Sequence record: NC_014662.1
From: Enterobacter phage CC31
Direction: 5' to 3' (one strand)
Length of the DNA: 64,000 nt
How positions within the stretch are numbered: position 1 is the stretch's first letter; each line of letters opens with the position of its first letter. The notes under the pieces are model-generated. The model did no database searches, was not told the DNA's origin, and saw only the letters and a list, made by a program, of their open reading frames with translations. Below are positions 1,974-57,064 of the stretch, piece by piece. A program made the translations under genes and the position numbers.

Positions 1974-3257
1974 ATGGCTAACATCCATGACCTTCTGCGC
2001 GAATCAACTACAACGACGAGTTCAATTTCTGCCCGTCCTAGCCTCGTTGCATTGACTCGCGCTACTACTAAATTAATTTACTCTGATATTGTAGCTACTC
2101 AGCGTACTACTCAACCTACTGCTGCTTTCTACGGTATCAAATATTTGAACCCTAACAAAGAATTAACGTTCCTTACTGGTGCTACCTACGCAGGTCAAAC
2201 TGGTACTGAGGACCGTAAATCTATTGAAACATTAACTGCTTCAAATAAAGATTCATTTGGCAAGGGTGATTTGTTCAAATACGATGACATTGTTTACAAA
2301 GTACTTGTAGATAATCCATTTGACCAGATTACTGAAACTGATTTAGAAGTTGTAATTCAGATTTCTCTGGTTAAACTCACTACTCGTTTAATGTCTGACG
2401 CTGCTATCACTTCCAAGTTTGAAACTGCTGGAGCTGATATCGCTGAAGCTAAATTCCAAATTGATAAATGGCAGACTCAAGTTAAATCTCGTAAACTTAA
2501 AACGAGCTTGACTGTTGAATTGGCCCAGGACCTTGAAGCTAATGGCTTTGATGCTTCCAATTTTATCGATGATTTACTGGCTACTGAAATGGCCGATGAA
2601 ATTAACAAAGACATTTTACAAAGTCTTGTGACAGTTTCAAAACGATATAAAGTTGAAGGTATCACAGATACTGGATTCATCGATTTATCTTATGCATCTG
2701 CTCCAGAAGCTGGTCGTTCTCTGTATCGCATGGTATGCGAAATGGTTTCTCATATTCAGCGCTCAACATCCTTTACGGCAACATTCGCTGTAGCATCTAC
2801 TCGTGCTGCTGCTGTTCTTGCTGCATCAGGTTGGTTGAAGCATAAACCTGAAGATGATGATTATCTGTCACAGAACGCTTATGGTTTCCTGGCAAACGGT
2901 TTGCCTCTGTATTGCGATACTAACACTCCACTCGATTATGTAATCGTCGGTGTAGTAGAAGATATTGGTGATAAAGAAGTTGTATCGAGTATTTTCTATG
3001 CTCCATACACTGAAGGTATCGACCTTGATGACCCGGAACACGTTGGTGCATTTAAAGTAATTGTTGACCCAGAAAGCTTACAGCCTTCTGTAGCTTTATT
3101 CGTTCGTTATGCATTGTCTGCTAACCCGTATACTGTAGCTAAAGATGAAAAGGAAGCTCGAATCATTGATGGCGGGGATATGGATAAGATGGCAGGACGT
3201 TCTGATTTATCAGTTCTTCTTGGTGTTAAGTTACCAAAAATCATCATTGAAGACTAA
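1974..3257 (+). CDS. 24: head vertex protein gp24
   Basis: 427 aa (T4 gp24 is 427 aa as recalled); gp23-paralog-like C-terminal region; position directly after gene 23. Confidence 0.92.
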   Translation: MANIHDLLRESTTTTSSISARPSLVALTRATTKLIYSDIVATQRTTQPTAAFYGIKYLNPNKELTFLTGATYAGQTGTEDRKSIETLTASNKDSFGKGDLFKYDDIVYKVLVDNPFDQITETDLEVVIQISLVKLTTRLMSDAAITSKFETAGADIAEAKFQIDKWQTQVKSRKLKTSLTVELAQDLEANGFDASNFIDDLLATEMADEINKDILQSLVTVSKRYKVEGITDTGFIDLSYASAPEAGRSLYRMVCEMVSHIQRSTSFTATFAVASTRAAAVLAASGWLKHKPEDDDYLSQNAYGFLANGLPLYCDTNTPLDYVIVGVVEDIGDKEVVSSIFYAPYTEGIDLDDPEHVGAFKVIVDPESLQPSVALFVRYALSANPYTVAKDEKEARIIDGGDMDKMAGRSDLSVLLGVKLPKIIIED

Positions 3258-5792: not shown

Positions 5793-5849
5793 GGTAATAT
5801 CCTACAGTAAAAGATGTTGATATAATACCACTCTCCAGAAAAAGCAAAA

Positions 5850-5865
5850 GGAGCCTTCGGGCTCC
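5850..5865 (-). terminator. bidirectional GC hairpin with UUCG loop (GGAGCC-TTCG-GGCTCC) downstream of hoc
   Basis: Perfect stem with A/T runs on both sides. Confidence 0.6.
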
Positions 5866-5867
5866 TT

Positions 5868-6679
5868 TTAATAGATGATACCAGCTTCTAAAGCTGAACG
5901 ATGAACAATACGTCCATTACGTGATTCTTGAACATCAACTTCAGGGTAGTCTTCAATCATTTTAGCTAACGTAGCCAAATGACAGTAATAAGGAGTATCA
6001 GAAGCGGTTGCAGTTTTCCAGTCTTTACCTTCTTCAGTAAGTTTCTGAATTGCATCCATAACCCACCAACCAGCCCAGATATAAGCACTAGAGCGATGCG
6101 GAAGTGGATGAACATAGAGAATTGGGCATTCGTCTGGAACAACTGGCTCGGCAGCTTCAACTGTAATATTCAGCACATTTGAAGTTTTAACAGTGTCTTC
6201 GTATCCAGTTGCTTTAGCAGTTACTTCACATGTTAAAGCAACATTTCCTTCCGTTTGAGCTACTGCACTAATATCAGCCGTAGTTTCTCCGGTTGACCAT
6301 TTGTAAGCAAGAGTTGCTCCTGATGGTTGACCTGTTACTCCACAGGTTGCACTATAGCTTTCACCAACTTTAACAGTTTGAGACTGAGCTGAAATAGTAA
6401 CAGTAAGATTCATAACGTCATTTACTGTTAAGTTAGTAGTTGCGGTTTGAATATCGTCTGGGTCTTCACCAGCTTTAGTGGTTGAAGTAACTTTAACTAC
6501 TTTAGTTCCAGCCGAGTCAGCGGTGTAATCCAAAGTATCAGTCACAGATGATTGTACTACAACCATTCATAAGTTATAGTTGCTCCTTCTGGCGCTCCGT
6601 TAACAGTTGCTGTAAACTGTTGTGAATCTCCAACTTTGATAGTGGGATTTAGAGGAGTTAAATCTACTGTAGTAGCCAT
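5868..6679 (-). pseudogene. hoc: hoc (outer capsid decoration protein) interrupted by an apparent single-base frameshift near 6557-6568
   Basis: 40-codon N-terminal frame (MATTVDLTPLNPTIKVGDSQQFTATVNGAPEGATITYEWL*) aligns with T4 Hoc N-terminus; 232-aa downstream frame carries Ig-like repeats and the conserved capsid-binding C-terminus (PILYVHPLPHRSSAYIWAGWWVMD...YPEVDVQESRNG). Confidence 0.8.
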
Positions 6680-6694
6680 ATAATTTCCATTATT

Positions 6695-6713
6695 TAAGAG
6701 GGACAAGCCCTCT
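6695..6713 (-). terminator. hairpin (AGAGGG-ACAAG-CCCTCT) between inh and hoc
   Basis: Inverted repeat read directly; function inferred. Confidence 0.4.
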
Positions 6714-7468
6714 TATGATAAAGTTACAAATGAAGAGTTTCGGGTTTCTCTTACTTGAACTGAACCATTACGTTTGATGTAATAAATCAAGCTCAAAAGA
6801 GTTTGATGAGCAGTAGGATGCTCAAATGACAGTGGTCTAGATTTCCAATCTGGATTTTCAAGAATCCACTGATAAATCCACCAAGGAAGAGTAGCATAAC
6901 CTGGATTACGCCCAATTAAATGCAGAGATGGACTGAAATCAGCCGGAAGCTCGAATGTGTCAGTTTCAATAACTTTGACAACTTTATCCATAGCTTCATT
7001 AAATTCATCTTGGGTCATATTCCCTACTGGAATTTTATGAACTTCGCCGTCATCTGAAACTGCAATAACAGAATCACCAATCGGAGCTTCAAGGATTACA
7101 CCTTTAACTGAGTCCATTGGCTTACCAAAATGAGGGTCGATATCAGTTACTTTCACTTGTGGTGCGTCAGCAGATACAGAATCAATCAATAGACGAGCTT
7201 CTTCTTTAGCTTCATCTTTAAAAATAGCAGTGCCTTTGGCTTCATCATCAGCTTGAATGAGGTCATAAATTGAAAGACCGTCATTATCTTCTGGCATAGG
7301 TTCTTCTGCTAGTTTAGCCAATTCGACTTCAAGGTCAGCGACCATATTGTCGAAGGCTTTAGTTTTCTTCAGCTTAATACCGAAGGTTTCAGCGTACTCG
7401 GCAAGCTTCTCTTTGGCTTCTTTTTTCTCAAGTGCACCGATTTCAGCAATATAATCTTTATCTAACAT
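6713..7468 (-). CDS. inh: probable Inh (inhibitor of prohead protease), capsid internal protein
   Basis: 251 aa from ATG at 7468 (the ORF-track start 7534 lies upstream of the promoter); T4 synteny hoc-inh-uvsW; acidic protein. Confidence 0.6.
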   Translation of the reverse strand: MLDKDYIAEIGALEKKEAKEKLAEYAETFGIKLKKTKAFDNMVADLEVELAKLAEEPMPEDNDGLSIYDLIQADDEAKGTAIFKDEAKEEARLLIDSVSADAPQVKVTDIDPHFGKPMDSVKGVILEAPIGDSVIAVSDDGEVHKIPVGNMTQDEFNEAMDKVVKVIETDTFELPADFSPSLHLIGRNPGYATLPWWIYQWILENPDWKSRPLSFEHPTAHQTLLSLIYYIKRNGSVQVRETRNSSFVTLS

Positions 7469-7483: not shown

Positions 7484-7491
7484 TATAAATA
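7484..7491 (+). promoter_or_regulatory. T4-type late promoter TATAAATA for uvsW
   Basis: Exact TATAAATA about 30 nt upstream of uvsW ATG (7521), AAGGAA SD between. Confidence 0.65.
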
Positions 7492-7497
7492 TAAATG

Positions 7498-7505
7498 TAT
7501 TTATA
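7498..7505 (-). promoter_or_regulatory. T4-type late promoter (TATAAATA on minus strand) for inh
   Basis: TATTTATA on plus strand = TATAAATA on minus, about 30 nt upstream of inh ATG (7468). Confidence 0.55.
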
Positions 7506-37889: not shown

Positions 37890-38935
37890 TATGCTTTACT
37901 CACAATAACAACGCGTTCAGTAGATTCACCAACAATTTCAATGTGATGAGCCAGAACTATATGAAAATAGCCATTAATCATAATAGAAGAGTTTAATTTG
38001 AAGTCAGCATCGCACAGTTGCTCATCAGTTTGAGCATAAACGATACTTCCCAAAGCATTTGTAAATTTAGTAATCATACAGCCATTTTTTCCTTTGATTG
38101 TTGGGTGACTTTCATAGTTAACTAACTTGAAGTCTTCGATAACAGCAAATCGGTTTATCCACTTAAGCTGAGATGAAGTTTGCCAGCGCTCAAACTCAAT
38201 TGGAAAATCAATTTCAAGATTGCAGAGTTCTTTTGGCTCTCGACGAAGAATTTCTTCGCACTGCTCAATATGATTTGAATAAATGTGAGTGTTGCCGCCA
38301 GTAAATACCAAATGACCAGGTTTTAAGCCAGTCATTTTAGCTACGATATGAATCAAAGCAGCATACGACGCAATATTGAATGGTAGACCAAGGAATACAT
38401 CTACCGACCTCTGGTACCACTGGAGGTCCAGAAGCCCATTGCGTACGTTGAACTGATATATCATATGGCATGGTGGAAGCGCCATCTTAGGGATGTCTAG
38501 AGGGTTCCAGGCGGTCACAATTTGACGGCGGTCATTAGGTAGTTCTTTGATTCGGTTAATAACCAAAGTCAATTGGTCAACACCCATAAAGTCTCGCCAC
38601 TGCTTACCATAAACCGGACCAAGCTCGCCGTCGACATATCCCATTGAACGAGCTTGATTTTCGTAGTTGTCGTCCCAAACAGTTTTACCATTTGTCGGAG
38701 ACCCATGCTGACGAAGACGCAAATCGTTTACATTCGTTGAACCGGACAAGAACCACAGAAGTTCTGCAATACATGCTTTCCAAGCAAGCTTCTTGGTAGT
38801 CACTGCTGGAAAACCTTCTTGCAAATCAAATCGTAATTGAGTACCAAACACAGCACAAGTGCCAGTTCCTGTGCGGTCGTCAGTTACATAGCCTTCATCA
38901 AAGATGTGTTGAATTAGTTGTTGATATTGTTTCAT
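37889..38935 (-). CDS. td: thymidylate synthase; as sequenced fused in frame to a 62-codon downstream ORF through an A6 run (38085-38090); canonical TS end predicted near 38075
   Basis: TS motifs (DRTGTGT, PPCH active-site Cys, WNP, QWYQRSVD); with A5 instead of A6 the frame would read IKGKMAV-stop and the next ORF (MITKF...) would start at an ATGA overlap. Confidence 0.88.
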   Translation of the reverse strand: MKQYQQLIQHIFDEGYVTDDRTGTGTCAVFGTQLRFDLQEGFPAVTTKKLAWKACIAELLWFLSGSTNVNDLRLRQHGSPTNGKTVWDDNYENQARSMGYVDGELGPVYGKQWRDFMGVDQLTLVINRIKELPNDRRQIVTAWNPLDIPKMALPPCHMIYQFNVRNGLLDLQWYQRSVDVFLGLPFNIASYAALIHIVAKMTGLKPGHLVFTGGNTHIYSNHIEQCEEILRREPKELCNLEIDFPIEFERWQTSSQLKWINRFAVIEDFKLVNYESHPTIKGKNGCMITKFTNALGSIVYAQTDEQLCDADFKLNSSIMINGYFHIVLAHHIEIVGESTERVVIVSKA

Positions 38936-56494: not shown

Positions 56495-56765
56495 AATATC
56501 CTTCTGTCATTTCGTCAATAATATTGTCAATATGAGCAATAGCATCTTCAATTCGCTTATCGGAAATTGCTACAATTTCAAACGTACCATTCAAAAACAT
56601 ACGAATGATGAAATCATTGTCATTAATATCCGATTTGACATCATTTTCAATTTCACTTAGAGTATCATAGAAAATGCCAGTGCCATTAAATTGGTCCTGG
56701 AACTCACGGAGTCTCTCGCTGGTATAAGTGACGTAAGGTACCATTTTAATTTCAGATGTGCTCAT
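56487..56765 (-). CDS. small acidic protein (possible Arn-like DNA mimic; tentative)
   Basis: 92 aa (same length as T4 Arn as recalled), strongly acidic; no sequence-level confirmation. Confidence 0.35.
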   Translation of the reverse strand: MSTSEIKMVPYVTYTSERLREFQDQFNGTGIFYDTLSEIENDVKSDINDNDFIIRMFLNGTFEIVAISDKRIEDAIAHIDNIIDEMTEGYYE

Positions 56766-56848
56766 AACCTTTTCCTTTATGCTTTTGCTTACGACGAGAT
56801 TCTTTTTCCTGGCGCTTCATATCTTTATGAGCGCCGCCTTTATTGAAA

Positions 56849-57064
56849 TCATGCTTTGCTACTGGATTGTTCATAATGCTCTATAACCTCTCTTAGACAA
56901 TATGACTCTAAGTTAAATCTTTTAGCAATCCCACACTCTATAATGTGGGACTTCAATTCGTTTGGAACAATATAACCTAATTCAACTATAAAGCGTTTAA
57001 TCTGAGCCTTCTCTGAACGATTAAGGCTATTGAAATAATCACTCTTTCTGTGTATTGTTCTCAT
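56849..57064 (-). CDS. hypothetical protein
   Basis: 71-aa ORF. Confidence 0.4.
   Translation of the reverse strand: MRTIHRKSDYFNSLNRSEKAQIKRFIVELGYIVPNELKSHIIECGIAKRFNLESYCLREVIEHYEQSSSKA

Follow-up and report, generated by a model that had tools for sequence, protein, structure and literature searches.

The Hoc protein of T4-like phages is non-essential in the laboratory and attaches to the capsid via its C-terminal domain (reviewed in PMC9958956). In T4 itself, Hoc consists of 376 residues (PDB entry 5VF3, chain Z) with three Ig-like domains, and the gene is intact; the Ig domains of RB49 Hoc (PDB entry 3SHS) offer a second point of reference. Enterobacter phage CC31 (GU323318) is the founding member of the genus Karamvirus. 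According to Petrov et al. 2010 (PMC2993671), it came from sewage in New Orleans and was isolated on E. coli B strain S/6/4. That paper contains no mention of hoc and gives no sequencing method for CC31, and we found no literature discussing the hoc gene of this phage. Here we describe the CC31 hoc locus in a stretch of 64,000 nucleotides from sequence record NC_014662.1, referred to below as the window.

As in T4, hoc in CC31 is located between inh and a set of small ORFs plus rnlB, beside uvsW. The whole of Hoc is not encoded by one uninterrupted ORF; it is divided between two frames of 40 and 232 codons on the minus strand, and comparison with relatives places a deletion where they meet:
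6557-6679, minus strand: hoc 5' fragment with strands A to C of Ig-like domain 1; 40 codons and a TAG stop (ADB81680.1)
5868-6566, minus strand: hoc 3' fragment, -1 frame; 232 codons and a TAA stop (ADB81679.1)
6561-6562, minus strand: deletion junction; the 10 bp CAGTTGATGA (coding strand) of relatives are absent between these two bases

The upstream frame begins at ATG 6679-6677 (translation MATTVDLTPLNPTIKVGDSQQFTATVNGAPEGATITYEWL) and ends at TAG 6559-6557, and the downstream frame runs from ATG 6566-6564 to TAA 5870-5868. The second ATG sits 7 nt upstream of the first frame's TAG, such that start and stop overlap within 10 nt (ATGGTTGTAG). In an exact-sequence look-up, both products are identical to GenBank proteins of CC31, namely ADB81680.1 (40 aa, 'head outer capsid protein') and ADB81679.1 (232 aa, 'Hoc-like head decoration'). 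Thus, the split has been on view in the public CC31 annotation (GU323318) since 2010. The original prediction, made from the nucleotide sequence, gave the coordinates and translation of the 40-codon frame correctly and likened it to the T4 Hoc N-terminus; it aligns with T4 Hoc residues 2-40 (..TITYAWSVDNV..).

The full-length protein was rebuilt by putting back the missing residues and was then compared with T4 Hoc. The rebuilt protein matches 5vf3_Z (376 aa) with an E value of 7.5e-72, its residues 2-273 corresponding to T4 residues 96-373, and its first domain also aligns with T4 residues 2-93 (TITYEWSVDDV versus TITYAWSVDNV). The two proteins are homologous throughout, including the C-terminal capsid-binding domain (YVHPLPHRSSAYIW...GIIY), which is nearly invariant in the sequence comparison. 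Frames and homology therefore agree with the earlier view that the gene is hoc, that it is broken after codon 40, and that the rest of the protein, with its conserved C-terminus, continues in the -1 frame from 6566.

Tandem Ig-like domains at the N-terminus are indicated by Pfam matches, a predicted structure and Foldseek. The Pfam matches to Ig_3, Ig_2 and Big_2 all fall under the curated cut-offs; the 5' fragment matches Big_2 with an E value of 7.6e-4. An AlphaFold2 model of the Hoc of an intact relative (P0003; 43-sequence alignment, mean pLDDT 88.5) shows two β-sandwich domains, and Foldseek against the PDB matched tandem-Ig proteins and RB49 Hoc (3shs), whose domains are Ig-like as are those at the N-terminus of the CC31-type protein. 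The model gives the following domain map:
Residues 3-91: Ig-like domain 1 (Ig1), with strands at 4-8, 13-15, 19-27, 34-41, 52-56, 61-72 and 79-91
Residues 96-178: Ig-like domain 2 (Ig2)
Residues 179-200: linker
Residues 201-273: C-terminal domain

On this map the deletion strikes residues 40-43, at the end of β-strand C of Ig1. The 40-aa peptide retains four Ig1 strands, and the 232-aa product, in which Met-Val precedes ancestral residues 44-273 (computed mass 24.9 kDa), contains the last three of the seven Ig1 strands, the whole of Ig2, the linker and the C-terminal domain.

Only two DNA records cover most of hoc, those of Enterobacter phage vB_VIPECLUMC02 (Karamvirus) and Klebsiella phage KLB31, to which the CC31 gene is about 95.4-95.5% and 73.5% identical, respectively. 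Both carry an intact hoc of 822 nt encoding 273 aa. In the DNA alignment the site reads GAATGGTCAGTTGATGATGTAGTACAA in vB_VIPECLUMC02 and GAATGGTCTGTTGACAATGTAGTTCAG in KLB31, and CC31 has a ten-position gap between GAATGGT and TGTAGTACAA; that is, the relatives read GAATGGT, CAGTTGATGA, TGTAGTACAA, with the middle segment missing from CC31. In a third relative, taken from an ENA assembly, the 10 bases agree with those of vB_VIPECLUMC02. The missing CAGTTGATGA corresponds to codons 40-43 (S-V-D-D), amounting to whole codons plus one base. At the protein level, all four 273-aa members of the same 90% cluster read EWSVDDVVQ; the site is W-S-V-D-D/N-V in intact relatives and WSVDNV in T4, and the peptide spanning it in intact Hoc is ...ITYEWSVDDVVQ....

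The closest of these proteins, the vB_VIPECLUMC02 Hoc (WFG78914.1, 273 aa) and its mates P0003, P0005 and P0006, share with CC31 the order inh-hoc-small ORFs-rnlB, about 98% amino-acid identity and the architecture of two Ig-like domains plus a C-terminal domain. They differ from it in that CAGTTGATGA is present and the ORF is single, whereas in CC31 the segment is absent and the gene is split into 40 and 232 codons.

The split had been attributed to a single-base frameshift, a reading that the alignment with relatives overturns, since 10 bp are missing. Adding one base would, by arithmetic, rejoin an ORF of about 270 aa as had been proposed, although the real lesion is 10 bp long and the ancestral length is 273 aa. 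There is no mononucleotide run at the deleted bases in this alignment, CAGTTGATGA being mixed sequence, and a homopolymer error would remove or add one base, rarely two, inside such a run. The alignment likewise reveals no microhomology at the breakpoints, which rules out direct-repeat slippage as the mechanism of deletion. In the intact sequence, the deleted bases do make up the 5' half of an imperfect inverted repeat (GTCAgttGATGAT...ATCATCtgTGAC). Such a structure could have promoted loss of the segment in vivo, or could have made a polymerase jump in vitro during PCR or sequencing.

Under an artefact reading, which includes the second of these routes, the missing 10 bp would be a flaw of the 2010 record, produced by a polymerase jump over the hairpin or by an assembly or editing error, and the living phage would have an intact 273-aa Hoc. 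In addition to the inverted repeat, this reading is favoured by the occurrence of the deletion allele in one record only. No other occurrence of the junction allele was found in the sequence resources searched, which hold one CC31 sequence; the exact 232-aa protein is not in the contig index, and the truncated forms in the 90% cluster are the CC31 entries only. A junction 28-mer is absent from IMG/VR, as is the intact 32-mer, and the gapped pattern gave one unrelated chance match in the JGI metagenomes.

A further point on the side of artefact is that td (thymidylate synthase; 38074-38935, minus strand), in the same window, has a homopolymer +1 that could be a sequencing error. Here CC31 has A6 at 38085-38090 (GGAAAAAATGG) versus A5 (GGAAAAATGG) in the closest relative. 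The additional A lies 15 nt before the stop codon, the C-terminus KGKMAV* is replaced, and the frame runs on into the next small ORF (…KGKNGCMITKFTNALGS…). The td change may plausibly be a sequencing error, or it may fuse td to that ORF, which would change a C-terminus that is important for catalysis. The earlier description of hoc and td as two homopolymer-type lesions holds for td, with A6 against A5, and fails for hoc, which has lost 10 mixed bases. With 10 bp gone and no repeat at the breakpoints, a base-calling error appears less likely at hoc than at td.

The accuracy of the record at large was gauged by mapping every annotated vB_VIPECLUMC02 CDS on the window (77 for positions 1-49553 and 25 for the remainder). 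Clean frame-breaking indels among these roughly 100 CDS are confined to hoc and td, beyond a 1-nt gap in a 31-codon ORF; mixed gap runs in hyp251, frd, gp36, gp37 and h292 were dismissed as alignment noise, being compensated within divergent stretches. The 31-codon hypothetical ORF, whose homologue lies at about 56762-56852 (minus strand) and has a 1-nt deletion at about 56829 relative to vB_VIPECLUMC02, is itself of doubtful reality. With so few frame-breaking indels among the mapped genes, the CC31 record appears to be generally accurate, which argues against an artefact at hoc. So do the atypical character of a 10-bp non-repetitive loss for either Sanger or pyrosequencing error, the depositors' annotation of two CDS rather than one, and the frequency of real hoc disruptions in other phages. 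We regard an artefact as unlikely. The caution about sequencing error attached to the original prediction is thereby weakened, given how unusual such a loss would be as a base-calling error, and retyping the lesion from a homopolymer slip to a 10-bp deletion moves the balance from sequencing error towards real mutation.

Apart from the deletion, the gene has not decayed. Measured against its two close relatives, the CC31 gene differs by 17-22 synonymous and 5-6 nonsynonymous changes (dN/dS 0.08-0.09). Twelve substitutions, 5 of them nonsynonymous and 7 synonymous, are found in CC31 alone, and this comparison revealed no second stop and no further indel. From these substitution patterns, hoc appears to have been under purifying selection for essentially all its divergence. 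In view of this lack of decay in the rest of the gene, the deletion would be very recent, having arisen in the isolate or its laboratory stock, or else not real; undiminished purifying selection is also what an artefact would show. The substitutions are unevenly placed: CC31 matches both close relatives at every one of the first 117 nt of hoc and departs from them by about 3-4% over the rest of the gene, and in the 42 nt that precede hoc it differs from vB_VIPECLUMC02 at a single base. This block of identity (6563-6720, minus strand), which may mark a mosaic or recombination boundary, ends close to the deletion.

What the split gene could still produce depends on its transcript and on the start signals of the downstream frame, for which the following features are relevant:
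7498-7505, minus strand: late promoter motif TATAAATA, T4-type, upstream of inh; likely start of the inh-hoc late transcript
5845-5870, minus strand: intrinsic terminator directly after the hoc stop codon
6556-6580, minus strand: new 9-bp RNA hairpin made by the junction, ACUAUAACU / GGUUGUAGU, -8.6 kcal/mol

The TATAAATA motif occurs 10 times in the window versus 3.4 expected, and two copies stand back-to-back in the inh/uvsW intergenic region (7484-7491, plus strand, and 7498-7505, minus strand; span 7484-7505). Because the terminator follows hoc directly, hoc is predicted to be the last gene of the inh-hoc late transcript, and its early termination would have no downstream polar effect. A scan of the whole window at Rfam gathering thresholds found no structured RNA or intron at the site. 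The junction hairpin holds AUG 6566 and the UAG stop within its loop and 3' arm, and the closest match to a Shine-Dalgarno sequence, AAGGAG (6588-6583), lies 16 nt away from ATG 6566. Given this distance and the position of the ATG inside the hairpin, independent initiation at ATG 6566 is unlikely. The overlap of stop and start in ATGGTTGTAG makes termination-reinitiation possible, and from the sequence context the 232-aa product could arise only via this inefficient process.

These features bear on a reading in which the deletion is real and ribosomes that stop at UAG 6559-6557 restart at AUG 6566-6564, yielding a 24.9-kDa Hoc that retains capsid binding. In that case the Hoc of CC31 would be shortened, frayed at its N-terminus and lowered in occupancy. 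Restarts beside nonsense codons are classical in T4 rIIB, and here stop and start overlap within 10 nt. The 232-aa product also keeps Ig2 and the C-terminal domain complete and with a confident predicted fold: in the model of this product Ig2 and the C-terminal domain stay at a pLDDT of about 90, with the first 50 residues at 55-78. Attachment of Hoc to the capsid is through the C-terminal domain (PMC9958956), and the natural 185-aa, one-Ig Hoc of other Karamvirus phages indicates that one Ig-like domain plus the C-terminal domain is viable. On the other hand, no Shine-Dalgarno sequence is suitably spaced from the AUG, the AUG is inside a hairpin of -8.6 kcal/mol, reinitiation is usually inefficient, and about 47 residues of an unfoldable Ig1 remnant (three of seven strands) would invite proteolysis or aggregation. 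Production of a working truncated Hoc in this way is accordingly a doubtful prospect.

We instead favour a genuine and recent 10-bp deletion that would shift the frame at the end of strand C of Ig1. Translation from the normal hoc start would end after 40 codons, giving a 4.3-kDa peptide that is presumably functionless. Because the remaining 232-codon frame seems to lack a ribosome-binding site that it could use by itself, the CC31 stock that was sequenced would make little or no capsid-bound Hoc and would be a spontaneous hoc-defective mutant. The loss would be tolerated because Hoc is dispensable in laboratory culture. The sequence comparisons and the model establish the gap itself, both frames, the ancestral form, the domain map and the absence of other decay; we infer that the deletion is present in the phage as well as in its record, and that Hoc is absent from virions. 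To this reading, a real deletion that leaves virions with no Hoc or almost none, we assign a probability of roughly 0.57. Of the two fates suggested originally, pseudogene or truncated Hoc translated from the internal ATG at 6566, the former is thus preferred, with hoc at best the source of an N-terminally truncated protein.

A long Hoc could in principle be recovered by recoding, either through a programmed -1 frameshift at the junction or through a hop like that of gene 60. The junction, GAAUGGUUGUAG (GAA UGG UUG UAG), contains no slippery heptamer of the form X XXY YYZ, and the two-frame layout with its coding gap is not conserved, the relatives having a single uninterrupted 273-aa ORF; a programmed -1 frameshift was rejected on these grounds. 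Since the relatives' ORF is uninterrupted, nothing about the arrangement is conserved or programmed. Together, the continuous ORF of the relatives and the missing slippery site make recoding of any kind very unlikely.

For the hop variant, take-off from UUG 6562-6560 and landing on UUG 6533-6531 would skip 26 nt and yield a product of 260 aa and 27.9 kDa, 13 residues short of the ancestral protein. The take-off and landing codons match and the frames are right, UAG 6559-6557 follows directly after the take-off UUG, and the take-off codon is within the hairpin. However, chance alone would place a UUG among the first 15 codons in about 13% of cases (there are 2 UUG in 232 codons), and the upstream peptide bears no nascent-peptide signal like that of gene 60, being ordinary Ig strand sequence common to intact Hocs; the site has nothing else typical of gene 60. 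The hop would also cost Ig1 the 13-residue stretch that lies between its strands C and E. That the deletion happened to create a bypass site of the gene 60 kind, with a 260-aa Hoc decorating the capsid, is an even slimmer chance than recoding as a whole. If true, it would be a spontaneously arisen translational bypass that rescues a frameshifted gene.

The preferred reading, loss of Hoc through a real deletion, makes the split an ordinary loss of a dispensable gene. CC31 is then probably a natural hoc-defective phage, a defect that is relevant to those who use it for capsid structure, display or mucus-adherence work. The CC31 Hoc entries in the databases (40 aa and 232 aa) are fragments and are unsuitable as full-length references. 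Beyond such record-keeping, the significance of the split is small.

The length of the reconstructed protein is a separate matter. It was correctly anticipated to be about 100 aa shorter than T4 Hoc, with two Ig-like domains in the CC31-type ancestor versus three in T4, and 273 aa is the normal intact form in the closest relatives. The shorter Hoc appears from these comparisons to be a property of the clade, unrelated to the lesion. Hoc is 185 aa long, with one Ig-like domain, in most other Karamvirus phages and 360-377 aa long in T4-type phages; within Karamvirus, two-Ig Hoc is found only in CC31 and vB_VIPECLUMC02-like phages. Alignment of the 185-aa form (P0025/P0026) with the 273-aa form (P0003) shows a clean in-frame absence of Ig2. 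The one-Ig proteins, such as that of Aeromonas/Enterobacter phage PS49 (P0025), share genus and C-terminal domain with CC31, but whereas they lack the whole of Ig2 in frame, CC31 has half of Ig1 severed by a frameshift.

Interrupted hoc genes are also present in other T4-like phages. Phage T2 has long been described as being without Hoc. The disrupted genes we located are:
Klebsiella phage Nispero (OL539458.1): hoc as 52 aa + 242 aa, an A-run at about codon 45 having changed by 1 nt
Metagenomic phage ERZ14207130 NODE_4: hoc as 76 + 201 aa, with a frame change at codon 76 by a GGG run
Phage T2 (AP018813.1, 367-1477): hoc in three pieces, frames alternating 1-2-1-2, three frame changes
Escherichia phage OE5505 (NC_054926.1): hoc with an in-frame stop

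The 'Hoc x2' of Erwinia phage Cronus (NC_055743.1, 601-1536) was rejected as a split gene; it is a tandem pair, each member having its own C-terminal-domain homology. Just downstream of the split hoc in ERZ14207130 NODE_4, on the opposite strand, a 73-aa ORF (2129-2353, minus strand) resembles the Hoc C-terminal capsid-binding domain (tblastn E 6e-11).

Among T4-like phages, hoc thus appears to suffer loss or breakage repeatedly, as would be expected of a gene that is dispensable in culture. T2, OE5505, Nispero and ERZ14207130 NODE_4 resemble CC31 in that a dispensable hoc is interrupted and annotated in pieces. The lesions themselves differ: those of Nispero and ERZ14207130 NODE_4 are indels of a single nucleotide at short runs and could stem from sequencing error, and the three frame changes of T2 reflect older decay, whereas CC31 has a single 10-bp deletion.
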